Shown: positions 8,166 through 55,460 of the stretch, piece after piece
How the letters are laid out: every line of letters begins with the position of its first letter
How positions within the stretch are numbered: the first letter of the stretch is position 1
Source: Eledone cirrhosa
Lineage: Eukaryota
Length of the DNA stretch: 64,000 bases
Reading direction: 5' to 3'
Assembly: GCA_964016885.1 (NCBI GenBank)
Contig: OZ024743.1
Coordinates: 164,858,001 to 164,922,000, forward strand
The notes under the pieces: model-generated
What the model saw: the letters and a program-made list of their open reading frames with translations, nothing else
What the model was told of the DNA's origin: nothing
Databases searched by the model: none
Made by a program: the position numbers and the translations under genes

Positions 8166-8934
8166 TATATACACACATTATATATAATACAATAAACAGA
8201 TAAATACACACATATATATATGAGCTTATTTAATTATAAATATTGTGAATTTTTAACTCAGTTCAATTATATATATAAATGGCTTCTACAGGACTAGAAC
8301 TGTTTCATTCGAAAGAAATCATCATAATATTGAGAGGGGGGACTAGATAAAATATTTCAAATCAAATGTGTATAAGTTATAAGTTAAAATGTATAAATAG
8401 AGACGATAGTGGAGGTATATCTGTTTAGTGGAACAGTAGACGATAGAATTAAATGCAGACGAGAATCTCCCTTTAATGAAACAGCAGACGATAGAATTAA
8501 GGCAATTTAAATTTTAAGCATTTGCATTTCATCGTTACGGGGTCGATAAAATAAAGTACCAGTAATACACTGTCACTATAAGTAGACGACTTTCAAATTG
8601 AATTGTTGGTTCCATTTCTTTAGTATTTTCAATTGTAGTTATCTACTTAAAAAGCGTTACACGGTTAGAGACATAATTGGTAAGTTATATCTTCCCTATT
8701 AAACCATTGCATTATTTCGCCTACAATATAACAAAAATGAAATGTTCTTTAAAGAAACAGGAATATTACTTTATAAAAAAAAAAGTTGCATCCGCTTCTT
8801 TTATCATTGATAATTTTTTCGTTTTAATATTAATTGTTTTTTGTAGTTGTTTATATTAAAAATCTTACTGTAATATTTACTTAAACGAAGGCAGACATCT
8901 AAACTTATAGATTAATCTTGAGCGAAGGACTAGA

Positions 8935-18688: not shown

Positions 18689-18758
18689 TATATTTTATCT
18701 GATGAGGACGTACTCAGGAAACAGCACAGTACCTCCGAAATATATATAATAAAATATA
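18689..18758 (+). ncRNA. Type I hammerhead ribozyme (PLE terminus)
   Basis: tattttat-CTGATGA-gga(c)gtact...agtac(c)tcc-GAAA-tatatata-ataaaata; palindromic minimal stem III. Confidence 0.8.
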
Positions 18759-18797: not shown

Positions 18798-18859
<62 letters not shown>

Positions 18860-18860
<1 letters not shown>

Positions 18861-20960
18861 CCCAAGCAATATCCAATCGAATAATTGTAACTGTAGAAAT
18901 AAATCCAACTGTCCGTTAAATAACAACTGCTTAGCAAAAATGTAGTTTATAATTGTAATGTTAAAACTAATTGTAATGTTAAAACTAATTTAAATTCATT
19001 TAATTATGTCGGTTCTACCTCTACAGAATTTAAATCCCGCTTCAATAATCATAAAAACTCTTTTACGGATCCAAACAAAAAATCTTCAACTTCGTTATCT
19101 AGCCTATTATGGGACCTAAAACGAGATAATGTTGAATATTCGCTGATTTGGAATATTATTTCAAAAGCTACTCCTTTTAACTCCTCTTCAGAAAATTGTG
19201 ATCTTTGTATAGAGGAAATATTCTTTATATTAAAGACCAAAAATTCCCTTAATTTAAGGAATAATTTATTCAGTTGCTGCAGACATAGATTGAACTCAAC
19301 GTTTAAATATAAATATAAATTTAAAATGTAGTATAATTAATTAAGTAATTTGGTTAATATATGAAACCTGTCGATAAATCATTAGATTCCTTCACCTTTT
19401 TCATTTTCTTTGGTTAAGTACTCAAGTATAAATTTTCTTCCTAAATATAATAAACTATTCTAGAAAAGTTTATCCTTTCAATATCTTGAATGAAATATAC
19501 GTAAGATAAATCTCTATACTAAATATATTAAACATATTATTTTAGCTTAAAATATTCTATAATATTTTAAAATATTTTGATATTTTGATATCTGTAGAAT
19601 CCTTGTTTTTTAAGTTATATTGATATAATATTTTATTTATTTTTCATTAGGTTTGTTTTTATTCTGATAGCTTCTCATAATTTTCAAAAGTTTATCCTTT
19701 CACTATCTTGATTAAAATATACGTAAGATAAATTTCTATATTAAATCTATTAAACATATTATTTTAGCTTGAAATATTCTATAATATTTTAAAATATTTT
19801 AATATTTTGATATTTGTAGAATTCGTTTGCCTTTTAAGTTATATTGATATAATTATATTTCCAAAATACAATCCTTTTGTATTTTATATACTCAATTGTA
19901 CTATGTAATATATTGATGTATACTTATCTCTATACGATTATGTATCTATATATGTGTATTAACATACATATACATGTGTTATATGCTTTTTTATGAATAT
20001 ATGTCTGTCTGTATATATGCATGAGTGACGCGTGTCTACCAATTGGGTGAAGATGCACACACATATTTATATATGTATAGCTAAGAATTGTGTGTGTGCA
20101 TGCTTACCCATGCAGTTTTGATTGCAGATATGCATAATTTAACAGCCATAAATGCATGAAAGTTAATCCTATATATTTATATATATATACTAACATTTTT
20201 TATTTAATAACACAAGGAATGTATAGCAGTAATAAAAAAAATCACTTATGCTTTGTATGTATATGTTATATGCGGGAGTAGATATAATGTGTATTTTCCG
20301 AGTGTGTGTGTATATATATATTTATGTATCTTTGCCTATGTGTACGTGATATACGATGGGTAATTTCTCTAGCAGTATATATATTTTGTAATGTTTAAAT
20401 TCCAATTTTTAATATATTGATCTCAATTTTTAAACTAAATATCTAATCATAATTAAACAATGATTAATTTCTCATATTATATATATATATTCCATTCATG
20501 AATATTAATATTTTTAATTTTATTTATTCATTTCGTCTCAATTGTTAACTCAACTTAATATGACATGACTTAAGATTTTCGTTCTCTCCCCCTCTCTCTA
20601 TCTCTATATTTCTCTCTCTTCAGTTTTTTCTCTCTGTCTGGTGGTTTTATATCTCTGTTGTTTTCCTCTGTTTTCTTTTTTCTTTTTTCTTTTCTTTCTT
20701 CTTTTTTCTTTATTTATCTCTCCCTTTCTTTTTTCCACGTTTCTCTCTATCTCTCCGTCTTTTTACTTATCCTGAACACAACAACTTACTAAAATAAACA
20801 AACCACTCTCCTGATGTCGTCCAAAAGTAATGGTCGCATTTTGAAAGGGTACGTCAATGTTTATTTATAAAACTGGTATATATTGTATTTTGTCTTATGA
20901 AGGCATACCATAATTTAACTTGGTATCCTTGAAATATGTATAATGAAATAAATATGGTTT
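18860..20960 (+). mobile_element. Naiad-type PLE 3' part: GIY-YIG endonuclease and long 3' UTR
   Basis: NCNCRNKSNCPLNNNCL, VVY, YVGSTSTEFKSRFNNHK, WNII, CDLCIEE, LN.RN.LFSCCRH; ends in an HHR and (TA)n; ~220-bp tandem duplication at 19463-19860. Confidence 0.85.
20884..20950 (+). ncRNA. Degenerate hammerhead ribozyme (G5->U)
   Basis: CTTATGA-agg(c)atacca...tggtatcctt-GAAA-tatgtata; core mutated, probably inactive. Confidence 0.6.
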
Positions 20961-21008
20961 TATAAATATAGTTTCCATTTGTTAATATCGTATATATATA
21001 TATATATA

Positions 21009-21698
21009 TTGTTATACTTTGGGAGGGTCATGTTGCCAATAAGAAACACACGCACCAGTTGCTTTCACTTCAATTTATTATAATAAATTTATAAATTTAG
21101 GAATTTATAAATTTCTGGTTGTTTGGTTGGTTCCACAACCAGATAGTTGTTTATATATTTCAAAGTTCTTTCGTCACACATTCTGTGACCTCTTCAGTGA
21201 CTGGGGATTCTTTTCTTTGTTTTGTTTTGTTTGTTTTTGTGCCTCTCCTTTGTTCTGTCCTACGCCATTTTGTTTCTGTGTGTGTGTTGTGTGCTCAGTC
21301 TCAGAGAGACACAACACACACACAGAGCACACAACACACACAGAAACAAAATGGCGTAGGACAGAACAAAGGAGAGGCACAAAAACAAACAAAACAAAAC
21401 AAAGAAAAGAATCCCCAGTCACTGAAGAGGTGACAGAATGTGTGACGAAAGAACTTTGACAATATATAAACAACTATCTGGTTGTGGAACCAACCAACCA
21501 ACCAGAAATTTATAAATTCCTAAATTTATAAATTTATTATAATAAATTTATTATAATAAATTTATTATAATAAATTGAAGTGAAAACAACTGGTGCGTGT
21601 GTTTCTTATTGGCAACATGACCCTCCCAAAGTATAACAATATCGGTTTCAACACACGATTTCAGATAAAGAATCTTGCTAAACAAATTCAGAAACGAA
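21009..21698. mobile_element. Inverted pair of PLE pseudo-LTRs with HHRs at 21159-21201 (-) and 21418-21460 (+)
   Basis: ~290-bp inverted arms; gtca-CTGAAGA-g-gtcaca..tgtgac-GAAA-gaactt-tgac; flanked by (TA)n. Confidence 0.85.
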
Positions 21699-21765
21699 AT
21701 ATATATATATATATATATATGGGGGGGGGGGGGTACCATCACTACACAAGATACAGAAGATTAAA

Positions 21766-23150: not shown

Positions 23151-23207
<57 letters not shown>

Positions 23208-23210
<3 letters not shown>

Positions 23211-24345
23211 TGTTATGCTTTGGGAGGGTTATGTTGCCAATAAGAAACACATGCACCAGTTGCTTTCACTTCAATTTATTATAAATTAAATTTATAAATT
23301 TAGGAATTTATAAATTTCCGGTTGGTTGGTTCGTTCCACAACCAGACGATTGTTCATATATTGTCAAAGTTCTTTCGTCACACATTCTGTGACCTCTTCA
23401 GTGACTGGGAATTCTTTTCTTTGTTTTTGTGCCTCTCCTTTGTTCTGTCCTACGCCATCTTGTTTTTGTTGTGTGCTTAGTTTGCGCATGTGTTACATCC
23501 GGGTGTCTGTGTGTGTTTATATTTGTTTATTTATTTGTTTATTTACATGTTACTGTAAAACTAGAAATGTAATATATAGCATAAGATGTACTGAAAGACA
23601 ATGCAGAGATAAGAATATAGTGTACATAGGTGAGACAGCTCGTAGTATAGGGGAACGGATAAATGAACACTGGCGAGAACTTCAAGATAGTAAAGAATCA
23701 TATGAAGAATCATATCCACCAACATGCTAAAATAGAACATAAGGGTAAATTAGAGAACATAGAAATAAAAATAGAATCTACACACAGAAAAGACGCAATG
23801 TTTAGACAAATCACAGAGGCAATAAACATAAATGAACTCCAACCAAAATTAAATAGAAAACATGAATGGAATAGCAACATCACAACTTACAATTAAGGAC
23901 AAAATGAAAACACACACACACATAGAACAAACAACCAACCAGTAACATGTAAATAAACAAATAAATAAACAAATATAAACACACAGACACCCGGATGTAA
24001 CACATGCGCAAACTAAGCACACAACACACACAAAAACAAAGATGGCGTAGGACAGAACAAAGGAGAGGCACAAAAACAAAGAAAAGAATCCCCAGTCACT
24101 GAAGAGGTCACAGAATGTGTGACGAAAGAACTTTGACAATATATGAACAACCGTCCGGTTGTGGAACCAACCAACCAACCGGAAATTTATAAATTCTTAA
24201 ATTTATAAATTTAACTTATAATAAATTGGAGTGAAACAACTGGTGCGTGTGTTTCTTATTGGCAACATGACCCTCCCAAAGCATAACAATATCGCTTTCA
24301 CACACGTTTTCAGATAAAGAATCTTGCTAAACAAATTCAGAAACG

Positions 24346-24347
<2 letters not shown>
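23208..24347 (+). mobile_element. 5'-truncated PLE: GIY-YIG fragment (23553-23895) between inverted pLTRs, with HHRs at 23363-23405 (-) and 24095-24137 (+)
   Basis: NVIYSIRC...YIGETARSIGERINEH...ITEAINI..LQPKLNR; same pLTR as 21009-21698. Confidence 0.9.
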
Positions 24348-25026: not shown

Positions 25027-27903
25027 TTACAGAGACCGGATTAGCGAACTAGTTAAGCGGGCGTTGACGGGGGCCATCGTCAACAACAAGTGGTGGTTTG
25101 CTCTGAAAAGAGCGATTAGAATAGAATCCATTAGGTTTAGTAAGGCTTTAGCAATAGAGAAAAATAGAGCAGAGAGAGAACTAGTTAGAAAATTAGACGA
25201 GGCGCTTAGCAAAGGCATTGCGACCGACGTGCTTGCGGTGAAATTGGCCCTTGACCAATTCTTCAATGCAAAGCACGAAGGCTGCGTTATCAGAGCTAGG
25301 GTGCGTGCTCTCAGACACGAGGGGACGAAAGCCGTTCAATGGGCCCGAGTGGCGGAGGCGCGTCGTGGCAACAAAGCCACGATCCGGTTTTGGTGGACCA
25401 CGACGGGCGCATGCTACTCGATCCCGGGCAAATGTGTAAAGCTTTTCAGCGACACTTCGCTCAACTGTTCGGGGGAAGCGGCGGGCCGGATCGAGGGATG
25501 GACTTTAGTGTCTACCTCGACGGACTGCCGCGGCTCTCGACCACTGAGGCGGAGTGTTGCGAAAAGCCGATAACAGCCGCTGAAGGCAATGACTGGCTGC
25601 ATAAGGGGTAAATCGCCTGGTTTGGATGGTCTGTCCTATGAACTTTTCGTACAGATGCCAGACTTGTTCGGAGGCCTCTTGGCAGACGTCTACTGCAACT
25701 GGCAACAGAACGGGAGAATTCTCAGTTCTGTGAGCCGAGGAGCGGTGGCACTGCTGATAAAGGATCCGAACAAGGGGGATAACATAGATAATTTCAGGCC
25801 CATAACTCTGCTAAACACAGAGTTCAAGATTTTGGCCAAGGTGCTAGCAAAGAGGTTGGCGCTTGTCGTTGGTGGTCTGGTGGGAGAGACGCAGACATGC
25901 GCCATTCCCGACAGATCCATCCACCTCATGCGATACATCGTAGAGAGGGTAGCTAGGGAACCTGGCACGGGTGGGTCCTTGATTAATTTAGATCAGTCGA
26001 AAGCTTTCGATAGGGTCGACCATCGTTACCTAGCGGCAGTCCTGAGGGCGGCTGGCTTTGGGCCCGTCTTCAGAGGCTGGATCGCTGCCATGCACAGCGA
26101 CATCTGCTCTGTGGTGAGAGTGAACGGTCACCTTTCGGAACCGTTCAACATCATGCGCTCGGTCCGCCAAGGATGTCCCCTCTCGTCCCTCTTGTACGTA
26201 TTGACTCTCGAGCCATTACTGCACAAACTGGAGACGTTGAGGGGCGTCCCGCGCGAACTAGGATGCGGAAGATCCGTGTCAGCATATGCGGACGATGTCA
26301 CCGTAGTGGTGTCGAACGCCAAACACATCGAGGCGATCGGCACTACACTAAGAGAATACGAAGCGGTGACAGGAGCAATGATCAACCAGGAAAAGTCAGT
26401 GGGCCTGCAGCTCGGCACCTGGAGAGGCAGGTCCATGCCGTCCAACAGCGTCGTCGGGCGCTCGACGGACGGGCCGGTTAAATTGCTAGGGGTCTGGTTC
26501 GATCCGGACCTCCAGACGGACAAAAACTGGGACGAGGTGACGAGCAGGGTGGCTTCTCTCACCCAGAAATGGGCGGAGAGGAAGCTATCCCTGAAAGGTC
26601 GAGCGGAGGTGGTTAACGCGTACACTGCGTCCGTCCTCTACTACCGCCTGACCGTCGTACCTTATCCTAAGCCCCGCCTGAGTGCGCTGGAGCGTTTGCT
26701 CTTTCGCTTTTTGTGGAAGGGACGCACTCCGATGGTCAGGCGGTCCATCTGTTGTCAACACCCGCTACGTGGAGGGCTGGGCATGCCGTGGCTGATGATG
26801 CGCAGACACGCGCTCAGGCTACGACATCTCCACCTCTTCCTCGACGGTGATCAGGTGTGGTCGCCGTTTGCTAGACGCGTCTTTCCCCAGCTCGTTTCCT
26901 TGACGGAGCTGCAGTCCTGGGTCAAGCGAAGACCGAGAGGGAGCGCTTGGAGATTGGAATGTCTTCAGGCGCTCACAGCCCTCGACCAATCGGGCAATGT
27001 GATCGGTGGAAACTCCACCTCGGCGTTCTATAGAGGATTAGTGGAGGGGAAGATCGACGACGTACTTGGGGAAACTCTAGGCGTCGACGAAAATCAACTA
27101 GCCAATCTCTTCGGAAGAACTTTCGGGCCGGGACCTATGGACAACTTCCAGAAATCTCTGGCCTGGCAGTGCTACCGAGGAGCCTTGCCAGTTCGGGATA
27201 AACTCTACAGGCATGGAGGTGCGGTCAGCCGGGCATGTCCGAGATGCGCGCAGAGCGACGAAACCGTCCTGCACGCACTCGTCCAGTGTCCGAAAATTGC
27301 TGACTTGTGGGTTTATGTCGAACACCTGCTGTCGCGTGTAGGACGGATCCGGCTATCATCTGAGTCCATCGTGAGGATTGCCCCGCCCTCCTCCTTTAGC
27401 CGGGAAGGGCAGGCAGTTTTTATCTGTCTGGTGGCCATGGCGAAAGAGATAGTATGGTGGACACGTTTGAAAGGGCTGAAGACGAGCACTTACCTCTTCG
27501 GTGATGCCCTGATTGACTTTTTCAAATTTCATTTGAAAAGGAAAATCAGAGTAGAGAGGGAAGTGCTCTCTTCCCAGCATTTTGTTGAAAGATGGGTGAG
27601 AGAAGCAAGAATGGCCCGAGTGAATGGGTCTACTCTGAGTATATATCTGCAAATTAAAGGTGGAAAACTGGGAGAGGGCACTTGCCTTGGTGGTCAGGGT
27701 CACTGTGGCCTTTTACTGGGCTTTCTCCACAAATGTCCCTCCGAAGTCTCCCCCCTATTGGGGAATTTTTCAGTGTTATTTTTTTGTTATATCCTCTGTT
27801 TTTTCTTTTTTACACGCAGAAATGCCCATTTGTACCGTACTGTATTGTCCTGCACTCTCCTTAATGTCTACTTTATGTAAACCCTTGTGGTTAATAAAGA
27901 AAA

Positions 27904-27905
<2 letters not shown>
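25027..27905 (+). mobile_element. L1/Tx1-clade LINE, 5'-truncated, ORF2 RT (25589-27880)
   Basis: KSPGLDG, NFRPITLLNTEFKILAK, LDQSKAFDRVDH, VRQGCPLS, AYADDV, CPRC..ETVLHALVQC; AATAAA and (ATT)n; upstream frameshifts. Confidence 0.95.
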
Positions 27906-27974
<69 letters not shown>

Positions 27975-34409: not shown

Positions 34410-34602
34410 TATCCATCCATGGTCCTTGAACTCCTGATGTAGTCATAGGAACATTTTTACAAATATGGCATGTCTTGGCTATTTTTACGCATACATATTC
34501 CATCTATAAATTCTACTCACTCGCCATCGGTCAACTCAATGGTATAGTAGAACAAGATAAATGAGAAGCAGACATCACAACCATAGAGTTGTTTAGAACC
34601 AT

Positions 34603-35225
34603 ACACTCTGTTGTCATCACGCCAAACATCATAACCGTATAGCTATGTCTACACTCTGTTGTCATCACGCTAAACATCATAACCGTATAGCTATGTCTAC
34701 ACTCTGTTGTCATCACGCCAAACATCATAACCGTATAGCTATGTCTACACTCTGTTGTCATCACGCCAATCATCATAACCGTATAGCTATGTCTACACTC
34801 TGTTGTCATCACACCAAACATCATAACCGTATAGCTATGTCTACACTCTGTTGTCATCACGCCAAACATCATAACCGTATAGCTATGTCTACACTCTGTT
34901 GTCATCACGCTAAACATCATAACCGTATAGCTATGTCTACACTCTGTTGTCATCACGCTAAACATCATAACCGTATAGCTATGTCTACACTCTGTTGTCA
35001 TCACGCCAAACATCATAACCGTATAGCTATGTCTACACTCTGTTGTCATCACGCCAAACATCATAACCGTATAGCTATGTCTACACTCTGTTGTCATCAC
35101 GCCAAACATCATAACCGTATAGCTATGTCTACACTCTGTTGTCATCACGCCAAACATCATAACCGTATAGCTATGTCTACACTCTGTTGTCATGGCAAAT
35201 ATTAACCGTATAGCTATGTCTACAT
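34603..35225. repeat. 48-bp minisatellite, about 13 copies
   Basis: Unit acactctgttgtcatcacgccaaacatcataaccgtatagctatgtct, nearly invariant. Confidence 0.95.
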
Positions 35226-36399
35226 CGTGTTGCCATCATGTGTCTTTTTCAATGGAATTAGATCATTATAACTGAGGTGAAATGTCAATTGATGAGAATA
35301 GAAACTGTATCATAGCTTCTGTTCTCGTTGCTACATTATTGCAATAATATCATTGGGCATATTAATGCAAATTTATTCAACAAGAATTGGCTTTGTGTAA
35401 CTTCTTCCCATAGAAGCATTAATTCGCAAATGACATAAGTTGCACATGACTTAATATTAATTTCTTTCTGGTACATTGAAATGGTTTAGGATCATTCCAG
35501 ACTATAGAAAATCTGTTTCCATTGTTAGTTTTGTTTGCCTAACACTTGTTTCATTCATTAGTTCTGTGATTTAACCAGTTGGAATACTAAATAGGAACTC
35601 TTATACTTCATCCATAACTATATTGAACATAGTTGAATGTTTCATTTCTTAGCCATATGTTACTTAAATACATGCATCCATTGAAGTGATTTTACGCAAA
35701 TTACTTATCTTGGAGTGAAACAATTTGTTTTCTTCAAATTATTTTATCTACTTGTGAGAGAAGATGTTGAAAGTTGGTGAGAGGGTCACTTGCAAACGTT
35801 GTGTAGGAAAGTGATTTCTCTTGTGAATTGTTGTTTCTCTTCCATACAACCAAGGTCAAAATGATAGCATGTGAGGAGCAACGAACATAATGTATAAAAA
35901 AGAGCCAGCATTGACGGTAAGCTGAAAAAGGTTAAAGATTCCTGTGGAAAATCTACATAAAAATTCATGAAATTAACATCTTGCTTGTTGGTTTAAGTCT
36001 TTATAGAACAGCCTGGATCTGAAAAATAAGTTGACAATAGAGTAAATTAAATCAATTTCAAAAAATGATTCTACCAATTTGATTACTGATGGACGAACAC
36101 ATTCCAACTACCAGTCCAATTTATCTTGAGCACCACTGTCTTTCTTTGACAAGGAAGGGTGGCTAGTTGTCCCATGGTTGGTGGTGTTGGCAAAGAAAGT
36201 TGCATGGTTGATGTGGTTAACAAGTTTAACTGCTTTAACAAAGCCCTCATCAACTTCTTGGTGAAGCTAAATGGCCTATTCTTATCTCCCAATTATAAAC
36301 ATGTAGCAAAAAATTGAGAGACTGCAAATTTGAAACTTCCTTAGAGTTCTGCTTCTTTCCAAATCATGTCAAGTGTCAATCTGGCACCTGAGGCAAAAT

Positions 36400-39184: not shown

Positions 39185-42100
39185 TGTTCAGGCGTTTTGA
39201 ACTGTCTGACAGGTACCGATTGGATTTCCCGAATGTGCCAATGTGGACTTGGACAAATCGTATCGGGTCATCCAGATCATAACTAGATAGAGTATTTTGT
39301 AGGGAAATAGATAGGTCTAGCATAAGCTGTCCACAATTCAAGATAGTCAGCTATACGGACCATAAATTCGTGATCTGTGTGCTTGACTTAGATAGGCTTC
39401 ATAGACAAGGACCCGGCTACCGGAAGCTAAACGCGTCCTTACCAGCGCGCAAGGTCTACAGAGACCGGATTAGCGAACTAGTTAAGCGAGTGTTGACGGG
39501 AGCCATCGTCAACAAGTGGTGGTTTGCTCTGAAAAGAGCGATTAGAATAGAGTCCATTAGGTTTAGTAAGGCTTTAGCTATAGGGAAAAATAGAGCAGAG
39601 GGAGAACTAGTTTGAAAATTAGACGAGGCGCTTAGCAAAGGCATCGCAACTGACGTACTTGCGGCGAAATTGGCCCTTGATCAATTCTTCAATGCAAAGC
39701 ACGAATGCTGCGTTGTCAGAGCTAGGGCGCGTGCTCTCAGACACGAGGGGACGAAAGCCGTTCAATGGGCCCGAGTGGCGGAGGCGCGTCGTGGCAACAA
39801 AGCCACGATCCGGTTTTGGTGGACCACGAGGGGCGCATGCTACTCGATCCCGGGCAAATGTGTGAAGCTTTTCAGCGACACTTCGCTCAACTGTTCGGGG
39901 GAAGCGGCGGGCCGGATCGAGGGATGGACTTTAGTGTCTACCTCGACCGACTGCCGCGGCTCTCGGCCACTGAGGCTGAGTGTTGCGAAAAGCCGAGAAC
40001 AGCCGCTGAAGTACGGAAGGCAATGACTGGCTGCACGAGGGGTAAATCGCCTGGTTTGGATGGTCTGCCCTATGAACTTTACGTACAGATGCCAGACTTG
40101 TTCGGAGGCCTCTTGGCAGACGTCTACTGCAACTGGCAACAGAACAGGAGAATTCCCAGCTCTGTGAGCCGACGAGCGGTGACGCTGCTGAGAAAGGATC
40201 CAAACAAGGGGGATAACATAGATAATTTCAGGCCCATAACTCTGCTAAACACAGAGTTCAAGATTTTGGCCAAGGTGCTAGCAAAGAGGTTGGCGCTTGT
40301 CGTTGGTGATCTGGTGGGAGAGGCGCAGACATGCGCCATTCCCGACAGATCCATCCACCTCATGCGATACATCGTAGAGAGGGTAGCTAGGGAACCTGGC
40401 ACGGGTGGGTCCTTGATCAATTTAGATCAGTCGAAAGCTTTCGATAGGGTCGACCATCGTTACCTAGCGGCAGTCCTGAGGGCGGCTGGCTTTGGGCCCG
40501 TCTTCAGAGGCTGGATCGCTGCCATGCACAGCGACATCTGCTCTGTGGTGAGAGTGAACGGTCACCTTTCGGAACCGTTCAACATCATGCGCTCGGTCCG
40601 CCAAGGATGTCCCCTCTCGTCCCTCTTGTACGTATTGACTCTCGAGCCATTACTGCACAAACTGGAGACGTTGAGGGGCGTCCCGCGCGAACTAGGATGC
40701 GGAAGATCCGTGTCAGCATATGCGGACGATGTCACCGTAGTGGTGTCGAACGCCAAACACATCGAGGCGATCGGCACTACACTAAGAGAATACGAAGCGG
40801 TGACAGGAGCAATGATCAACCAGGAAAAGTCAGTGGGCCTGCAGCTCGGCACCTGGAGAGGCAGGTCCATGCCGTCCAACAGCGTCGTCGGGCGCTGGAC
40901 GGACGGGCCGGTTAAAATTGCTAGGGGTCTGGTTCGATCCGGACCTCCAGACGGACAAAAACTGGGACGAGGTGACGAGCAGGGTGGCTTCTCTCACCCA
41001 GAAATGGGCGGAGAGGAAGCTATCCCTGAAAGGTCGAGCGGAGGTGGCTAACGCGTACACTGCGTCCGTCCTCTACTACCGCCTGACCGTCGTACCTTAT
41101 CCTAAGCCCCGCCTGAGTGCGCTGGAGCGTTTGCTCTTTCGCTTTTTGTGGAAGGGACGCACTCCGATGGTCAGGCGGTCCAACTGTTGTCAAGACCCGC
41201 TACATGGAGGGCTGGGCATGCCGTGGCTGATGATGCGCAGACACGTGCTCAGGCTACGACATCTCCACCTCTTCCTCGGCGCTGATCAGGTGTGGTCGCC
41301 GTTTGCTAGACGCGTCTTTCCCCAGCTCGTTTCCTTGACGGAGCTGCAGTCCTGGGTCAAGCGAAGACCGAGAGGGAGCGCTTGGAGACTGGAATGTCTT
41401 CAGGCGCTCACAGCCCTCGACCAATCGGGCAATGTGATCGGTGGAAACTCCACCTCGGCGTTCTATAGAGGATTAGTGGAGGAGAAGAGCGACGACGTAC
41501 TTGAGGAAACTCTAGGCGTCGACGAAAATCAACTAGCCAATCTCTTCGGAAGAACTTTCGGGCCAGGGCCTATGGACAACTTCCAGAAATTCCTGGCCTG
41601 GCAGTGCTACCGAGGAGCCTTGCCAGTTCGGGATAAACTCTACAGGCATGGAGGTGCCGTCAGCCGGGCATGTCCGAGAGGCACGCAGAGCGACGAAACC
41701 GTCCTGCACGCACTCGTCCAGTGTCCGAGAATTGCTGACTTGTGGGTTTATGTCGAACACCTGCTGTCACGTATAGGACGGATCCGGCTATCAGCTGAGT
41801 CCATCGTGAGGATTGCCCCGCCCTCTTCCTTTAGCCGGGAAGAGCAGGCAGATTTTATCTGTCTGGTGGCCATGGCAAAAGAGATAGTATGGTGGACACG
41901 TTTGAAAGGGCTGAAGACGAGCACTTACCTCTTCGGTGATGCCCTGATTAACTTTTTCAAATTTCATTTAAAAAGGAAAATCAGGGTAGAGAGGAGTACT
42001 CTCTTCCCAGCATTTTATTGAAAGATGGGTGAGAAAGCAAGAATGGCCCGAGTGAATGGGTCTACTCTGAGTATGTGTCTGTAAATTAAAGGTGGAAAAC

Positions 42101-42335
42101 TGGGAGAGGGTACTTGCCTTGGTGGTCAGGGTCACTGTGGCCTTTTAATGGGCTTTCTCCACAAATGTCCCTCCGAAGTCTCCCCCCTATTGGGGAATTT
42201 TTCATTGTTATTTTTATTACATCCTCTGTTTTCGTTTTTTTACACGCAGAAATGCCCATTTGTACCGTCCTGTATTGTCCTGTACTGTCCTTAATGTCTA
42301 CTTTATGTAAACCCTTGTGGTTAATAAAGAAAGTA
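39185..42335 (+). mobile_element. L1/Tx1-clade LINE, second copy, with APE C-terminus and frameshifted RT
   Basis: Highly similar to 25027-27905; WTWTNR..SR..LDRV, YTDHK, YADD; AATAAA and ATT tail. Confidence 0.95.
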
Positions 42336-42484
42336 TTATTATTATTGCTATTGTCATTGTTTGTCCTTTTCCTTCAGTATTGTTTTCGATATATGCCAAG
42401 TGTCTTCCTGACACCTAGGGTGAATAAACTCACTGTAGAACATTGGTAAACCAGTTAACAGTGATTATAATTTGCAGCTTAAAA

Positions 42485-42765
<281 letters not shown>

Positions 42766-42902
42766 ATTGGAATAAATGCTCTGAAATAGCGATATATATG
42801 TGAATATAGACATAGAATATTCGAAAATATTCTGTATGTTTATAATAAACATTTTGAAGACCTAATCGCTATAGAATAGAATACGTCACGTATTACAATT
42901 AG

Positions 42903-42991
42903 ATTCTCGATAAAAGCAAGGGAAGTAATCTACGCGTTTCATTCTTATTAGAAATCTTCAGGACCACATATCCAGTGCTTTTATCGAGAAT
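42903..42991 (-). ncRNA. Type I hammerhead ribozyme (unit 1)
   Basis: attctcgataaaagca..gtggtc-CTGAAGA-t-ttct-aata-agaa-t-GAAA-cgcg-TA-gattac..tgcttttatcgagaat. Confidence 0.85.
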
Positions 42992-43212
42992 GACACAGCT
43001 AGAGACTTATAGAATACTTAGCTGTGTACAGGAACTGGTTTGAAAGAGCGGTTGCCGGTCCGGCAGAAATTAGAAATTGGAATAAATGCTCTGAAATAGC
43101 GATATATATGTGAATATAGACATAGAATATTCGAAAATATTCTGTATGTTTATAATAAACATTTTGAAGACCTAATCGCTATAGAATAGAATACGTCACG
43201 TATTACAATTAG

Positions 43213-43301
43213 ATTCTCGATAAAAGCAAGGGAAGTAATCTACGCGTTTCATTCTTATTAGAAATCTTCAGGACCACATATCCAGTGCTTTTATCGAGAA
43301 T
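43213..43301 (-). ncRNA. Type I hammerhead ribozyme (unit 2)
   Basis: Same sequence as unit 1. Confidence 0.85.
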
Positions 43302-43522
43302 GACACAGCTAGAGACTTATAGAATACTTAGCTGTGTACAGGAACTGGTTTGAAAGAGCGGTTGCCGGTCCGGCAGAAATTAGAAATTGGAATAAATGCT
43401 CTGAAATAGCGATATATATGTGAATATAGACATAGAATATTCGAAAATATTCTGTATGTTTATAATAAACATTTTGAAGACCTAATCGCTATAGAATAGA
43501 ATACGTCACGTATTACAATTAG

Positions 43523-43611
43523 ATTCTCGATAAAAGCAAGGGAAGTAATCTACGCGTTTCATTCTTATTAGAAATCTTCAGGACCACATATCCAGTGCTT
43601 TTATCGAGAAT
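43523..43611 (-). ncRNA. Type I hammerhead ribozyme (unit 3)
   Basis: Same sequence as unit 1. Confidence 0.85.
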
Positions 43612-43832
43612 GACACAGCTAGAGACTTATAGAATACTTAGCTGTGTACAGGAACTGGTTTGAAAGAGCGGTTGCCGGTCCGGCAGAAATTAGAAATTGG
43701 AATAAATGCTCTGAAATAGCGATATATATGTGAATATAGACATAGAATATTCGAAAATATTCTGTATGTTTATAATAAACATTTTGAAGACCTAATCGCT
43801 ATAGAATAGAATACGTCACGTATTACAATTAG

Positions 43833-43921
43833 ATTCTCGATAAAAGCAAGGGAAGTAATCTACGCGTTTCATTCTTATTAGAAATCTTCAGGACCACATA
43901 TCCAGTGCTTTTATCGAGAAT
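43833..43921 (-). ncRNA. Type I hammerhead ribozyme (unit 4)
   Basis: Same sequence as unit 1. Confidence 0.85.
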
Positions 43922-44121
43922 GACACAGCTAGAGACTTATAGAATACTTAGCTGTGTACAGGAACTGGTTTGAAAGAGCGGTTGCCGGTCCGGCAGAAAT
44001 TAGAAATTGATCGCTATTTCAGAGCATTTATTCCAATTTCTAATTTCTGCCGGACCGGCAACCGCTCTTTCAAACCAGTTCCTGTACACAGCTAAGTATT
44101 CTATAAGTCTCTAGCTGTGTC

Positions 44122-44210
44122 ATTCTCGATAAAAGCACTGGATATGTGGTCCTGAAGATTTCTAATAAGAATGAAACGCGTAGATTACTTCCCTTGCTTT
44201 TATCGAGAAT
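44122..44210 (+). ncRNA. Type I hammerhead ribozyme (inverted unit)
   Basis: Core CTGAAGA at 44152-44158, GAAA at 44173-44176, predicted cleavage after GTA at 44182. Confidence 0.85.
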
Positions 44211-44350
44211 CTAATTGTAATACGTGACGTATTCTATTCTATAGCGATTAGGTCTTCAAAATGTTTATTATAAACATACAGAATATTTTCGAATATTCTA
44301 TGTCTATATTCATATATATATATGTACATATATATATATATATATATATA

Positions 44351-44527
<177 letters not shown>

Positions 44528-44570
44528 TTATATATATATATATATATATATGTATATTTATATATATATA

Positions 44571-44611
<41 letters not shown>

Positions 44612-44859
44612 TATATAGGTAAGTTATTCCGGGCTGAATCGGAGGTAACCACAGTAAGTAAGGTACACAATACATAGCAGAGTATAAAAGTTTTAATATA
44701 GATGAGATTATGCAGGACTACAACTGTTTCATTCTTGAGAAATCATCAAGAATGAAACAGTTCTAGTCCTGTAGAATCTCATCTATATTATATATATCAT
44801 ATATATATATATATATATATATAAAAGTTTACATATATATATACATACATATACATATA

Positions 44860-45467
<608 letters not shown>

Positions 45468-45959: not shown

Positions 45960-48808
45960 CCAAAAAATAAAATATAATAATTTAATTTTAAAAGTACTGA
46001 GGAAAAACTATAAAAAGGCCTCAAGCGAGGATTTATTGGACATAAATAAGAAAGCATATAACATTATCACCAATCTAGGAATCAAGCGTAAAACAGAACC
46101 TTTCATACCAAAACACCCGAGGATTAATATGAAAGACCATAAAAATCTTTGAGGAAAATTTACCAGTAAGACCTTCTAAATCTGATCTAGGAATCATTAG
46201 CAAGAATATAATAGGTAGGATTACACCAACACTTAAATTGAAATCACAACTAAATCTATGGAAAGGTACAAGTGAAGTTATCGATTGTTTCATAAATATT
46301 AAACATAAAAAAATTATAAGTTTATTCAAATGGATATAGCCAGTTATTATTCCTCGATAACTCCCAATCTATTGAATAAGGCGCTATCATATGCATACAA
46401 ACACACAGACCTATCTAGTGAGGAGATAAATATTATATTAACTGCAAGGCGAACTTTGATAGATTTTAATGATGATCTTTGGACTAGGGCTGATAGACAG
46501 AAGAATTTTGACATTACGATGGGTTCTTCGGAATCAGCCCAAGTCACAGATCTAGTGGACATTTTTATCCTTAACATGATAAATAGAAAATTGCCGGAGA
46601 TTACCGGAGGTTTATATAGGGACGACATACTATTTATTGTAGAAAAACATAAATATAGTAAAGAAAGCAATAATAGAATTTTTTTTTAAATTACGACCTG
46701 AAATTAGAAATAGAAAATAATAATAAAATAGTTAATTTTTGGGATGTGACTCTAAATCTTAACTCAAGCCTTTATTACCCTTTCCACAAAGTTAATGAGA
46801 ACATAAATTATGTTAGTTTTTATTCTAATCATCCTAAAAGTGTTAAGAATGTGATAGTCAACAGTGTACATCAAAGAATATCCAGGCTCTCTGCTAATAG
46901 ATCTATATTTAATACTAAGGCTATATAATATAATGAATCGCTACATAAATCTGGCTATAACAATAACATTGAGTATATAGATAAAAATACTGAAATCCAT
47001 CAAAATAAAATTAATTATAATCATAATAATCACCATAAAAATGAATATAAACACATCTGGATGAATAAATTGAAGAAAAAAGTAAGAACTAGATCTATAA
47101 TTTGGTATGCACCGCCAGCATCCTTAGGTATTAAGACACCTGTAGCACATTTATTTTTTAAAGCTTTAGATAAATGCTTCCCTAGTTCTCATAAATATTA
47201 CCCTATCTTCAATAGACACACAGTTAAACTCTCTTATTCAATTACTGTGAATATTGCTCAAAATATAGCAAAGATAAATAATAAGAATCTAAAATCAAAC
47301 CAACCTCTACTAAGCAATAATAATAATAATAATATATTAATTAATAAAAATAACAATAATAATAGTCTAAACATGAATAATAGTATAACGCCTTTAAATA
47401 GCAATGCGAATAGTATAATACCTGTAAATAACAATGTGAATAAATGTAATTGTAGAAATAGGTCCGAATGCCTTGATAAAAATCTTGTATATAAATGTAC
47501 CATTAAGGCAAATGGTAATATATATATAATTACATAGGTGTCTCTTCATCTAAATTTAAGGAACGTTGGTGTAATCACAGACGTACTTTTAATAGACCGG
47601 ACAAATAACACATTGAATATATGTAAATTTTGCCTAATTGAAGTAATAATTTATAGATATTTATATGTAACCTCATTGAGAGTTTTTTTATCCTACCAAT
47701 TGATTAGGATAGCTCAATATTTAACTAGACATCAATTAGGATATATACACTAGATATGTTAAGGTTCTTAAAATATCGCTGGACGCGAGAGAAGAGATTC
47801 CCTCTAAGTTATAAAATGTTTTACTTTGTCCGTAAACTTTTTTATTAGCTTGGGAAAAAACATATATAAAATATAGATTAATAAATAATAATTAATAGTT
47901 TAATAGACTATCATTAAAATTAAACAATATATATTAGAATAATTAAATATAGAAATAAATATAACCATTCATTAAGTGAAATAAAGTGGAGAATAAATCT
48001 AACCACAGTTACATTTTAAAAAATAAATGAAAATTAAAAAATAGCGAAGTTTCACATAAAGTGAATTTTGAATTAATTTAGATAATAAATGAACAAAATA
48101 TATATTGATGGGGATATATGCATTTTAATATATTTTAATGAATATTTAATAGTTATTTAATTAGGCAATAAAGATAAATTGTTTTAATGTTGTAGTATAA
48201 TATTAATAGAATATCTTACCTTATAATAAAACATTGTCATAATCTAGAATGAGCTAAATTAAATTAAATTAATTTAAGCATATAAATTTGTAATTAGCTT
48301 AAATATTTGATTGCTATAGAAATTAATCTATGCCTAATAATCTGGATATAATATAAACTTATAATTAACTAAAGCGTAATCCAATACAAGCGGTTTTCAC
48401 TGATAAATATTATGGAAAATTTTTTATTTTTTATTTAGTCTAGCATTTGAATACAACGGTTTTTTTTATCCTCCCCTTTATTTTATCCTTTCCTTTTCCT
48501 TTTCTTCGTTTTCTATAATTCCTTTCTTTTCTCTCTGCATCTTCCCTTTTCTTCTTTTCTTTATTTCCCTTCTTTTTTTCCCATCTTCCCTTTCAACTCC
48601 CCTTCTATATTTCTACCTTGCTTTACGTCCTCTTCTTCTCTAAGTTTGTCATATTATTTGTGGTATAAAAATGTTGAGGGTTGGTGAAATAAATTACTAC
48701 CACTACAGGAATTGAAGATTCAAGACCTTAGCGGTATGTCGCATATTCAATCTCTCATATATTTTATCTGATGAAAACGTACTGAAACACCATTGTACCT
48801 TTGAAATA
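45955..48808 (+). mobile_element. Naiad-type PLE: RT, GIY-YIG and 3' UTR; terminus continues at 50150-50215
   Basis: FIQMDIASYYSSI, FDITMGSSESAQVTDLV, GLYRDD, DVTLNL, YSNHP, WYAPP..IFNRHTVKLSYS, KCNCR..LVYKC; stops and frameshifts. Confidence 0.92.
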
Positions 48809-50149
48809 TCTATACTATAAAGCTGAGGGCCGTATGTAGGTAACAAACTTTCCGCCAAACGGCTGGACCAAACAGCGCCAAATTTGCACCATAGACGTAA
48901 CTTGTTCGAAGTAAAAAAGTGAGGGTATTTTTGTCTACTGAATTTTGTTAAAAGATTAAAGACATTATTTAAATATTCACTTCTTTAAAATTTCAAATGT
49001 CAACACTTCCGGTTATATGTTATTCCTCACTTTTTCTTATGACGTCGCACAACATTCCCCTCTATGTCTGGCTGTCTGCATTAGATAACGTTTTTCGAAA
49101 TATTTACTTCTGTGTTCACAGACGGATTTTTTTAGTTTCAGAAGATCCCGTTAAGGGTGAAAGCAGTGATTCTTTGCTTAAACTTTAATCTGTTATTTTA
49201 ATATATATATTCGTGTACAGATATTTTTGCATACACAAAATCAAAAACCTATTTATTTCACGAAAGCACAGACGGCTTATCGTCATTGTTACTGTTCGAA
49301 GTTAGAGGACCACAGTCTTTCCAAGATCTGAGAACCATCAATAGCTATCAATGTTCCACTTACCGTTTGGCTTGCCAGATGCGTGGTATGGTACACGATG
49401 ACAGCCATTGGCACCTCACCCTGCAAGAAGCAGCAACTGCTAAAGTCCCTTCTCAGCTGCGAAAACCTTTTGCTATTATGCTGCACAACTGCGATCTCGC
49501 CTACCCTCTCGTAATGTGGAACAACCACCGTGAAAGTCTAGCTGAGGACATCCTCCACCGCACACGCAGACACAATCCAAACGTAACATACGATGTCGTT
49601 TTCAATGAGGGGCTCATTTGTCTTGAAAACAGTGTCCTGGAGATGGTAGGTGGTAGGCCTCTAAGACACTACAGCTTACCTGCTCCTGACAGGAGTGTCC
49701 AGAGGTCAACGTCTACAGAGCTTCTCCGCGAGATGAGCTGCGAAATCAGTGATTCTCCCATGGTCAATTGTATGTAGGATGATTTAGGGTGAGCTCGCCA
49801 AACAATCTCTTCATCTTTGCTCCGGAGGGCCGAACAAAGAATATTGTATACTCTGAGGCTCTAACAATGTAATTTAAATATTTTCTGTTACTTTGAATTT
49901 CCATTATGGTTGTACAAATCATTGTTTGTTAAAAAATGTGTTCTCTGTTCAGCCTTTATCGTTGTAATTATCGGGGATCCTAAAAACTATTCAAACTCAA
50001 CATCAGAGCACGTTACCCCCCCCCCCCCCCCGCCCCTCGCTCGCTGACTTGAGAGGGCGGGTGGTATCTTTGTACTGGACTGTAGGGGGATACCTGAAAA
50101 TATAAATGCCGGTATACCTGGCCGGTCGCTAGCCGGACGGGCCAGCTAG
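48809..50149 (+). mobile_element. Internally deleted Helitron
   Basis: A|TCTATACTATAAA...ccggtcgctagccgg hairpin..CTAG|T; coding remnants VRGPQSFQDLRTI and FSHGQLYV..RV..TKNIVYSEAL (helicase C-terminus). Confidence 0.9.
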
Positions 50150-50291: not shown

Positions 50292-52950
50292 GTTTGTATT
50301 TGTAAAGCCAAAACAATGCAGGTATGGATATAGAATAAAAAATGCAAATGCAAAAGATATTGTTGACAATTAGTCTTTTACCTTAATTTTCGAGATAATA
50401 TTTCTTCTTCGGAGGGAAGTAAAGCGGTTAAACCAGTGTTCTAAATAGCTTGCCAAGTCATGCTGACAGGAAAAGGTATAGAGTATCTGTTCTATCTCTA
50501 ATGTCAAAGAGTTAAGGTTAGGGGGATAAAGAGTAGTCTCTCTTTAAAAGGGGTTTTGTACATGTCTGTTTAGGTGTGTGGGAGAATGCGTGAAGGTGTA
50601 AGTATGTGTGTGTGAGTGTGAGAAGATATGTCTATACGTAAATGTGGGGGATAGATGTTCTCTCGTGTTAGAACTGGTCTTTGTGTGTGTGTGAGAGAGA
50701 ATAAGTGGGGGTGTAAGCGTGTGTGGGTGTGGGTGTGTGTGTGTGCGTGCGTGGGGGGGGGGGGGTAAGGGGGTGTAAGTATGGGGCTAGATGCTCTATC
50801 AAGTAATAAATTGGGTGTTGAGTTCTAGTCTATTATTGATTGGTGGTTGTGTTTTGTCTATAATTAGTGCTTCCTTAATTCTAAGATTGCCGAGGTTTCT
50901 TTCCTTAGTTTCTATCCTAACTGTTATGGTTTTGTCGGTGTTTTTGCATTTCAGTAGGTGTTTCTTAAATGAGGAAGCGTTAGTATTGAGGTGTTCTTTT
51001 ATTCTTATGTGGAGTGGTCTGGTGGTGATACCTCCGTAGAAGTTGCTGCATTTGTCGCACTCTAGTCTGTATACGACGTAAGCCTGGTGGCATAGGTCTA
51101 TGTCGTTGATGGAGCAGTTGGTTAGCCTGCAGCGGTTGTCATGTCTGGTGGAGTGTCTTTTGGTTAGCTCTCCGCGTAGAGAAGGTCCTGAGTGGGCCAA
51201 TTGGATATCTAGTCCCTCTCGTCTGATAGCTCTGCGGATGGCTGTTGTTCTTTCGTCACTGAAGTGTGGGAGCTTCAGGAAGCAAGTGTTAGTGCCTCGG
51301 GTGTGGTGTCCTCTGTTCTTTCTGGCACGGTTTGTGGTGGATCTCGGGTATCCGTTCAGTTTGAGTACTTCCAGGAAATGTGTGGTGTGTGTGTCTCGGT
51401 CTCTAGCGTCGGTGCATTTGTTCCGGATACGGTTTAGTTCGTTCCTTATGTATCCGAACTTAGCGCCGGCTGGGAGGGCCGATCTGAAATGTACGAACAG
51501 GTCCCCGCTGGCGGATTTTTTATAGAAGCAGGTGTGGATGTTGCCTTCCTCTCTTATCCTGAGTTGGAAGTCCAATAGGGATAGGAATCCGCGGTCATCG
51601 GGGTGTTCCATGCTGAACTTTATACTGGCGTCCATGCTGGAGAATGTTGTGTATATTTTATCCGCCTCCTCACGGGATGATGTAAGGATGAGTATGTCAT
51701 CTACATATCGAGTGAAGAAGGTATGGGAATGGCAGGTGTTGAAGGCTCGGCATTCTAGCTGGTTCATGTAAGTGATGGCCAGCAGGCCCGATAGGCTGGA
51801 TCCCATGGGTAATCCTGTTGTCTGTCTGTATGTGTGGTGGTGGAAGGTGAAGTACGTGTTGTCCACTGTGAAGGACAAAAGCTGGTGTATGTCCGTCGGA
51901 TGGAGGCCGTAGCAGTGGATGTCCTCTGCGACCACGCAGTCCGTCAATAAATCGACAGCTGGATGTAGAGGGAGACAACGTCGAGGCTAAAGGCGTATCT
52001 GTTTAGTTTAAGTTGTTCTGGCTGGATTTGGTGTAGTCTACGTATGACTTCGTCGGAGCTACTGACATGCCCGGGAAAGGTGGAGAGTAGAGGCTTGAGG
52101 ACCTGGGAGAGGAGCCAGGAGATTTTATATAAGGGTCCTTCTAAGCTAGAGACGATGGGTCTTATTTGTGTCTTAGTACTATTCTTGTGGGTCTTGATGA
52201 GGTGGTAGAAAGTGGGCAGTCTGCTATTTCTAGTGGTGTAGTTGAGCTTAACTAAATTTGGGAGTTGTCTTCTCCTACATATGTCGAACCAGATGGAGTT
52301 GGTCTGTTTTTCTATCTGAGCTGCAGTCATGTCCGGGATCTCTGTATATAGTTCATTGTCGCTTAGGTGTTCAAAGGCTAGGTTGTTGTATGTGGCTTGA
52401 GAGATGACGCAAAACTCTTTACCTTTGTCGGATGGTAAGTATATAAGTTCCCTATTCCGTAGTTTCTTCAGGGCGAGTTGTTGTGTCCTGGAGAGGTTTG
52501 GGGCTATCTTCTTCTGTTTCCGTAAGATGTTAAATACGGAATGTTTTAGCCTCAAGAGTTTTTCTTCAAGCTCGCGATTGGCAGGCGGTGGACAGAGTGA
52601 GCGATCCAGTTGGTATATCGGGAATCTGGGTTTGTTAGATTCCGTGGTGTTGTTGCCGAGAGTCGATATCCATTTTAGTTAGTAGGCAGCCCGACAGAAA
52701 TTCGTTTCTATGTCGAGCCATAATTTGTCGTCCAGTCTCTGTTTCAATATGAACTTGGGACCCAGGCTGGGGAGGTCTAATTCCTCTCGGGTGAGGGATC
52801 CTGTCAAGTCTGTGGCGAGGTGTTTTGCGTCAGGTGTGTTGTTGGTCGGGGTGCCGTTAGGTTCGGTGTTGGTACCGTCTTGTTCGCCTCTGTTGGTGCT
52901 TAGAGTTGGGTTGTTGTTAAGACGGTTAGCCGTGCTAAGTTTGAGAAATG
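50290..52950 (-). mobile_element. Nearly complete Penelope/Poseidon-like PLE (RT and GIY-YIG, 50799-52700), frameshifted; degenerate HHR at 50374-50426
   Basis: PSDKG, PTFYHLIKTHK, RPIVSS, SLDVVSLY, GLPMGSSLSG, RYVDDIL, VVYRLEC..FYGGITTRPL..RIKEH, EALII. Confidence 0.93.
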
Positions 52951-53545: not shown

Positions 53546-55189
53546 CTGTGTGAGTGTTCGTGTGTGTGCGTGTAAACCACCGCTGGAATCGGAGACATAG
53601 GCCGCGAAACACGATCATCACTGACAACGAACTCGCAGAGAGAATCCCTTATGGTTGATTCCCAACCTGCTAGAAATAGCAATCAAGTTGGTTAGCATAC
53701 GTGGTATGTCTTTCTTCTTCTTTGGTGTTATAAAATTAGTATCAATAAACTTTCCTGGATGTACTCTTATCCCAATCCTGTACATACTTTCCGATTGTCA
53801 CTTTTCGTTTTTTTCGTGTGATATGCGAAGGAACCAGCCAACAAATATCTCTCTTTTATATTATGTACTAGCAGAATGGCACGGCGTTACTCGGGATTTT
53901 CTCTAGGGTTCTTATATATTTGATATATATTTATCCTTATCTAGCCTCGTGAAATAAATACGTTTGTTTATATGTTGTTATTGTGTATGCAAAAATATCT
54001 GTACACAAATACATAATTATATATATATATATATATAAAATATAGAGGTTTACATATACATAAACTAGACAGAGCCATAGATATATAGATATGTGTTTTT
54101 GGCAACCATTCAGGGTGTGGCTCAATGATGAATTAATTAATTAAATAATCAACAATCAGAGCAATATATAAGAAAGTAAGTCCATAGAATCATTTGATAA
54201 AATATATTCAGTATTTGTCTTCCCAATCAGCATAATCAACCACATAAAAAAATCAATTAAACGAGGCTATAAGTTTAAAATGTACCTATGAAGAAACAAT
54301 AGATAAATAAACGATAGCTACTTTAACCGCGATCCACAGCCACAGAAGATTTACCTAGTATTTCTAATAGCCCGTAGAAATTCACTAGACATATAGTTAA
54401 CCATACACAATTAGGTACAAAATCAAAGTTAGACGAAAAAATGTACATAAATATACCAAAATCGTGTTTTTACCCCCGGAGGTTTCATTCGCTTTTTGGA
54501 AATATCCGATCATGGATAAATCAACGAGTTTCAAAATCATCAGGAAACAAACTCAATTGGACTAAGATTTTTCTTAAATGATCCCCGCCAGAAACGAATT
54601 CACAATGGCTAAGAATTGTCACATGGCCAGTGGTCAAATCAGAAAGCTTGTGATTGGTGCCTGATGGCGAGTAGGCTGGTTGCTAGAAAGCGCAGCCGAA
54701 TACTGCCTAAAGTTTTACTCAACCTTACGGGAGTATATAAAATATAGAGGTTCACATATATATAAACTAGACAGAGTCATAGATATATATATATATGTGT
54801 GTTTTTGGTAACCATTCACGGTTTCGAAACTCGTTGATTTATCCATGATCGGATATTTCCAAAAAGCGAATGAAACCCCCGGGGGTAGAAACATAATTTT
54901 GGGTATGTTTATGTACATTTTTTTCTTCTAACTTTGATTTTGTACCTAATTGTGTATGGTTAACTATATGTCTAGTCAATTTCTACGGGCTATTAGAAAT
55001 ACTAGGTAAATCTTCTGTGGCTGTGGATCGCGGATAAAGTAGTTATCGTTTATTTATCTATTGTTTCTTCATAGGTATATTTTAAACTTATAGCCTCGTT
55101 TAATTGATTTTTTATGTGGTTGATTATGCTGATTGGGAGGAGAAATACTGTATATATTTTATCAAATGATTCTATGAACTTACTTTCTC

Positions 55190-55460
<271 letters not shown>

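Follow-up and report, generated by a model that had tools for sequence, protein, structure and literature searches.

Which reverse transcriptase moves the animal retrozymes, and on what template, is the question raised by an ORF-less array of hammerhead repeats that lies within a (TA)n microsatellite of Eledone cirrhosa (GCA_964016885.1, contig OZ024743.1, positions 164,858,001 to 164,922,000 of the forward strand; this whole 64-kb stretch is the window, and coordinates below are counted from its first letter). According to the main text of a 2020 review, such repeats contain no motif from which their partner reverse transcriptase could be told (PMC7761336), and a 2026 preprint argues for a PLE origin from co-occurrence and from homology to the PLE pseudo-LTRs (pLTRs), with the mechanism and the origin of the tandem arrangement presented there as unsettled (10.64898/2026.07.22.740005). 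The link between PLEs and retrozymes has, therefore, already been proposed; what we add is an insertion footprint on an ORF-less retrozyme multimer.

The insert consists of two arms joined head to head. The main arm (42766-44009, 1244 bp) has no mismatch at a period of 310 and amounts to 4.01 identical units, and the region 44010-44312 is an exact 303-bp reverse-complement match to a circularly permuted unit, i.e., a full turn minus 7 nt. The ribozymes of the array read on the minus strand and that of the inverted arm on the plus strand, and the centre of the resulting palindrome (44010-44033, 24 nt) is made of the sequence that also forms the one-sided tail described below. The unit has a G+C content of 34%, and the longest ATG-initiated ORF lying wholly within its 310 bp is of 30 aa. 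An ORF scan recovered from the insert no RT/GIY-YIG ORF of the kind that an autonomous EN+ PLE requires; hence, the insert is not an autonomous PLE. The possibility that a PLE ORF starts in a 30-aa frame crossing the tail was dropped, such a frame being too short to carry weight. The original prediction of four apparently identical 310-bp units, a single inverted and circularly permuted unit, no ORF and (TA)n on both sides (tracts 42486-42767 and 44312-44617) is thus borne out; of the span 42766..44318 that it gave for the array, the start holds and the end does not, since 44318 falls in the flanking (AT)n and the arm ends at 44312. The features of the locus are the following:

42486..42767, no strand: left half of the (AT)n target, interrupted by GTAC (repeat scan)
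42740..42767, no strand: candidate target-site duplication, left copy, 26-28 bp, (AT)6GTAC(AT)6, identical to 44312-44339
42768..42801, minus strand: 34-nt tail, the main-arm 3' end beyond the inverted-arm 3' end (range 33-36 nt)
42766..44009, minus strand: main arm, 4.01 identical 310-bp units (period identity)
42903..42991, minus strand: type I hammerhead copy 1, predicted cleavage after 42931 (motif scan)
43213..43301, minus strand: type I hammerhead copy 2, predicted cleavage after 43241; the variant sites of sequencing run X1 are mapped here
43523..43611, minus strand: type I hammerhead copy 3, predicted cleavage after 43551 (motif scan)
43833..43921, minus strand: type I hammerhead copy 4, predicted cleavage after 43861 (motif scan)
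44010..44312, plus strand: inverted arm, one turn less 7 nt (exact match to the permuted unit)
44122..44210, plus strand: type I hammerhead copy 5, core 44152-44176, predicted cleavage after 44182 (motif scan)
44312..44339, no strand: candidate target-site duplication, right copy, identical to 42740-42767
44312..44617, no strand: right half of the (AT)n target (repeat scan)

All five units carry the same set of ribozyme elements, namely a 6-bp proximal stem I, CUGAAGA, a 4-bp stem II, GAAA, the palindrome ACGCGU and GUA, together with a distal stem I of 16 bp, and the invariant hammerhead core is intact. An equally complete motif (stem I of at least 6 bp, stem II of at least 4 bp, plus stem III) arose in one of 50,000 dinucleotide shuffles of the unit and in five of 50,000 under looser rules. 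The helices have the canonical type I proportions (helix I of 6 bp, helix II of 4 bp and helix III of 1-2 bp with a palindromic loop), and such proportions are described as separating the canonical retrozyme hammerheads from the minimal PLE type (PMC4209133). By its predicted helices, then, the unit's hammerhead is of the canonical retrozyme type and not of the minimal PLE type. As for the complete type I hammerhead that had been predicted in each unit, the motif is present in five of five and the 16-bp distal stem is confirmed, but it had been overlooked that stem II opens with U.U in place of G10.1-C11.1 in every copy in the window; this position is A-U in relatives from the sequencing runs X1, X10 and X17. 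In the predicted circular monomer the pairing probability of stem II is only 0.15-0.18, and the circle as a whole has a predicted fold of -67.4 kcal/mol (z -4.2 relative to 200 shuffles). For the dimer RNA, folding without constraints gives as the predicted optimum a double hammerhead with its two ACGCGU palindromes paired, which lies 18 kcal/mol below two monomeric hammerheads in nearest-neighbour energies that leave out kinetics. This supports the earlier suggestion that these hammerheads act as dimers, and the GUA site, with predicted cleavage after 44182, was likewise located by the motif scan.

Other profile and pattern searches were also run over this region. An Rfam scan of 7 kb returned no hammerhead family and only microRNA models on the palindromes and (AT)n, all below cut-off; a sub-threshold match to HH9 (15.4 bits vs a cut-off of 52) aligns the internal loop of stem I with that of HH9. 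Exact ribozyme patterns had 0 matches in metagenome contigs and 0 in viral contigs, and a bacterial promoter scan of the unit stayed at shuffle level, the bacterial model not being applicable here. A degenerate core pattern picked out eight loci that we take as chance matches: in their flanks no cleavage triplet follows a short helix III, and outside the pattern they bear no likeness to the 310-bp unit.

How the units came to be placed in this microsatellite may be read from the ends of the insert. The 3' end of the main arm overshoots that of the inverted arm by 34 nt (33-36, by the assignment of shared A/T letters), and this tail starts at the unit's internal (AT)4 run. The string (AT)6GTAC(AT)6 runs up to the left joint and recurs from the right joint onward, and constitutes a candidate target duplication of 26-28 bp, the length of which is uncertain because the string is palindromic, of low complexity and set in a microsatellite. 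All six (AT)3GTAC(AT)3 sites of the 64-kb window lie in the two flanking tracts (AT runs of at least 16 nt number 47 in the window). As these GTAC-interrupted sites are confined to both flanking tracts, the latter are the halves of one microsatellite. Insertions of EN+ PLEs are described as having an inverted 5' copy and a 30-40-bp tail on one arm (PMC8557442; PMC3846280), and PLEs as being biased toward AT-rich or microsatellite targets (PMC8557442; PMC11167929). In the account given of the anole PLE, the tail spans the interval that separates two RT start sites, and both strands of the target are cut and extended (PMC11167929). The insert bears what reads as the full PLE footprint, with an inverted arm, a one-sided tail, a (TA)n target and a candidate target duplication. 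The terminal inversion, which the original prediction had called PLE-like, is hence supported more strongly than was claimed, given the 34-nt tail, the candidate duplication and the other inserts of like form; the recent date that had been proposed for the insertion is likewise supported.

These other inserts are internal controls within the 64-kb window, where six other inverted pairs were examined and five measured. Four of the six (21.0-21.7, 23.2-24.35, 44.62-44.79 and 44.84-45.35 kb) share the layout: one arm ends at an internal AT-rich word merging into (AT)n, and the other is 55-90 nt longer, the tails thus being longer than the 34 nt of the retrozyme insert. The pair at 54.2-55.2 kb has a similar layout with an ambiguous tail end, and that at 17.7-18.2 kb is without (AT)n. 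Judging by these pairs, the layout of the insert is the genome's usual PLE-type footprint.

Several of these elements merit description in their own right. The inserts at 21006-21700 and 23207-24347 belong to a single family of PLE ends; their arms lie head to head, hammerhead cores occur on each strand and the tail measures 55-60 nt. The second of them (23.2-24.35 kb) includes a GIY-YIG fragment, with a Pfam E value of 1.7e-4 that is just under the cut-off. A small head-to-head insert at 44618-44790, in the (AT)n next to the retrozyme array, has a tail of about 80-90 nt and is broken within its hammerhead core; its stem II words equal those of the 310-bp unit, and a portion of it recurs near 8.3 kb (8268-8325). 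Its alignment to the unit scores 41, inside the spread of the shuffles (mean 35, max 54), and does not establish homology. A different family accounts for the palindromic inserts at 44840-45352 and 53900-55340, which sit in (AT)n with a tail on one side only, and a motif scan detected no complete hammerhead in either region. Hammerhead-like cores occur at 18699 and 48768 in two related short repeats. On the coding side, 50799-52678 (minus strand) holds a PLE-type ORF split over two frames, with RT and GIY-YIG Pfam matches (50799-51986), and remnants of PLE-like coding sequence, decayed and bearing a cysteine linker, lie beside (AT)n at 45960-47600 and 18829-19331. The cysteine-linker fragments of the window are ones that we take to be Neptune-like. 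Neptune and Naiad have been linked to microsatellite targets (PMC8557442), and on that account such elements of the window are candidates, and candidates only, for the partner of the retrozyme. The 310-bp unit shows no similarity to any PLE end within the 64-kb window. The remaining repeats include two 96%-identical copies of a 2.9-kb piece of a non-LTR retrotransposon (25028-27931 and 39457-42361), with RVT_1 and zf-RVT in the first copy and the second stopping some 125 bp to the left of the target microsatellite, and a 48-bp minisatellite at 34602-35238 (13.4 copies, 96% matches). Broken ORFs at 14173-16832 and 49202-49777 are presumably Helitron-like; one piece of these was scanned, without a Pfam match.

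Relatives of the unit are present in public sequencing runs. Among 24 listed runs, 20 hold 56-82% of its sampled words, under 18 organism labels and from 17 studies, and no RNA run is among the listed runs holding such words. Four of the 24 (X1, X10, X17 and X23) were aligned to one unit (43000-43309), with X23 giving 0 aligned reads, a result that does not count as an absence, and the head-to-tail 310 joint was found in X1, X10 and X17. The unit attracts 659 contigs in X1, of which 326 have an identity of at least 99%, 136 of 95-99, 100 of 90-95 and 97 below 90; it is a diversified family in this run, and would be a multi-copy family of the host if X1 is of the window's species. Six variant sites of X1 lie above the 3% limit, five in the ribozyme and the sixth outside. 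The former affect N7, loop II (twice), the base of stem II (U.U to A-U) and stem I (G.U to A-U), so that none strikes the invariant core and none breaks a pair; in this small sample, the pattern would be that expected under selection for the fold. The letter at 43275 is common to all five units and is carried by less than 1% of the X1 depth, and at 43257 and 43267 too all five units hold X1-minority letters. That the rare 43275 letter is shared by all five units suggests one template, provided that X1 belongs to this or a closely related species. Loose ends in X1 with (AT)n fall at 43102 (10 contigs), 43087 (11, mixed) and 43071 (1), near both end classes of the insert (among 6 of 51 rows), and the inversion joint of the window is absent from the joints listed for X1.

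In X10 the unit is a single self-closing contig of 340 nt and in X17 a single contig of 280 nt, and the two depart from the window at four identical letters, in runs of different organism label and study. This variant carries the better-paired ribozyme alleles, and its stem II repair allele is a minority in X1 (17% of depth). From the 18 organism labels, the self-closing X10 contig and the variant common to X10 and X17, one might imagine the 310-nt unit as a circle passing between hosts, which strikes us as very improbable; the 18 labels are more simply explained by kinship among the species, by food or by cross-contamination with a repeat that is very abundant.

The same runs bear on whether the unit is nothing other than the pLTR of a coding PLE, the locus then being a copy, truncated at its 5' end, of an element whose pLTRs had multiplied. 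Xenopus retrozymes are reported as homologous to pLTRs, and 24 of 57 retrozyme families as matching Repbase entries, nearly all of them PLEs (10.64898/2026.07.22.740005); a 646-nt contig of X1 embeds in other sequence a 64-nt stretch of the unit that shows 9 differences, and the 23.2-24.35-kb insert of the window is a coding-PLE remnant of the same layout. However, the units run head to tail without an ORF, with the 310 joint present in X1, X10 and X17, and the ribozyme is canonical rather than minimal. The share of aligned contigs that continues into unlike sequence is 0, a weak argument given that repeat contigs are short. We judge the pLTR interpretation improbable.

In our assessment, it is quite probable that the retrozyme was placed by PLE machinery, and we incline slightly toward the 310-nt circle as the template of the insertion. 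That the locus preserves the trace of a PLE enzyme travelling around a retrozyme circle, having begun at two sites, is given somewhat less than even chances. In the explanation that we favour, at slightly better than even chances, a non-coding non-LTR retrozyme would have been copied into (AT)n in one recent event by the RT/GIY-YIG protein of an autonomous PLE acting in trans. A tandem donor locus would be transcribed, and adjacent hammerheads in the transcript would fold as a double hammerhead and release 310-nt monomers to be closed into circles by a host ligase; the fold here is our prediction and the chemistry is that of the coral, mussel and axolotl retrozymes. The PLE protein would cut both (AT)n strands about 26-28 bp apart, and the RT would start at two RNA sites 34 nt apart, one per target end, as suggested by the DNA footprint of the locus and the behaviour of the anole PLE enzyme in vitro. 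Finally, one cDNA would run four turns and the other one turn, presumably by rolling on the circle, and the two would be joined head to head.

The arm ends map to positions 130-165 of the cleaved monomer, with none near the cleavage site, which indicates a template that was continuous across that site. Moreover, each arm stops a few bases from its own start register (1 to 4; 36 to 28), as would be expected of an RT that meets its own primer on a circle and stalls there. This agreement was noticed after the fact, the two stops are perhaps not independent, and the gain or loss of whole units would preserve it. The rolling reverse transcription of a 310-nt circle that was originally predicted is thus plausible, but an uncleaved linear multimer yields the same DNA. 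In that case, PLE-driven insertion would have used a linear read-through transcript of a homogeneous tandem donor, with the ribozyme and the circles uninvolved in the move, and the permuted ends would be accounted for equally well. Indeed, hammerhead mutants are reported to leave the insertion of the anole PLE unchanged, its main substrate being the unprocessed, uncleaved RNA (PMC11167929), and only one of nine Xenopus retrozyme dimers is reported to have been cut in vitro (10.64898/2026.07.22.740005). The 5' end of the main arm also falls on an initiator-like word some 29 nt beyond a TATA-like run, an arrangement as described for the rotifer pLTRs (PMC3846280), yet this word occurs 10 times per unit and the match is of little weight. 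Further, a linear template requires a donor of at least five identical units with a rare allele, whereas 333 of the 659 X1 contigs are less than 99% alike, and in the prediction the dimer adopts the active form directly. On the whole, we regard the linear template as unlikely, while still giving it serious consideration.

A rather different origin for the four turns would be a short palindromic insert followed by later local tandem growth of one arm, or else an assembly error in the four-copy count. The 2026 preprint proposes a local amplification (10.64898/2026.07.22.740005), the copies are 100% identical, and no locus-spanning read was seen in the aligned runs. Nevertheless, a one-unit arm offers only 4 bp of terminal redundancy to seed an unequal exchange. 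If X1 is of the same or a close species, the rare letter kept by all five units argues against polishing to the family consensus, which would have favoured the majority letters, and the tail, the unique joint and the target duplication are not assembler inventions. We judge later growth or miscounting improbable, as we do the pLTR interpretation, and we retain copying by a PLE enzyme in a single event as the preferred reading.

An ORF-less multimer with a tail, an inverted arm and a (TA)n target constitutes mechanistic evidence of a different kind from co-occurrence or homology. This footprint bears on which reverse transcriptase moves the animal retrozymes, and it points to a PLE enzyme. One locus does not settle the matter of the mover, and the element class is not new; the value of the locus is as a clean record of a retrozyme insertion. 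The main texts of three retrozyme papers (PMC7229834; 10.64898/2026.07.22.740005; PMC7761336) describe no tail-plus-inversion footprint on a retrozyme, and the first two mention no inverted arm, one-sided tail or microsatellite target; no paper on such a footprint came up in the main texts and literature listings searched, and it may nonetheless be on record.

Compared with known systems, the locus is, as originally predicted, an animal non-LTR retrozyme by the sequence-level definition of this known class, for which expression and circles have been described (PMC7229834). Like the metazoan representatives, it has tandem units in the range of 150-450 bp with a type I hammerhead in each (PMC7229834; 10.64898/2026.07.22.740005), a G+C content below 50%, no ORF, a stable predicted circle and, in the 26-28-bp candidate, perhaps a long target duplication; in these sources, the duplication exceeds 4 bp when present, and most families reach at most seven units (PMC7229834; 10.64898/2026.07.22.740005). 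Unlike the published retrozymes with expression and circles, it is known from DNA sequence alone. The axolotl HHR_Amex1 and HHR_Amex2 and the newt satellite 2, with units of 330-350 bp, are described as efficient only as dimers (PMC7229834). The window copy shares with HHR_Amex1 a weak palindromic helix III and with HHR_Amex2 the U.U at the base of helix II, and yet HHR_Amex2 cleaves (PMC7229834); it differs from either in combining both weak features, a comparison made by description and not by sequence. With respect to the EN+ PLEs, the locus is distinguished by the lack of an RT/GIY-YIG ORF, by four tandem units as against a partial tandem and by the canonical form of its hammerhead (PMC4209133). 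At the same time, it parallels their insertions in the head-to-head inverted 5' copy and the 30-40-bp tail on one arm (PMC3846280; PMC8557442; PMC11167929), and also in the AT-rich or microsatellite target and the presence of a hammerhead in the repeat, and the pLTRs of these elements are themselves described as sequences that can be moved in trans (PMC3846280; PMC8557442; PMC11167929).
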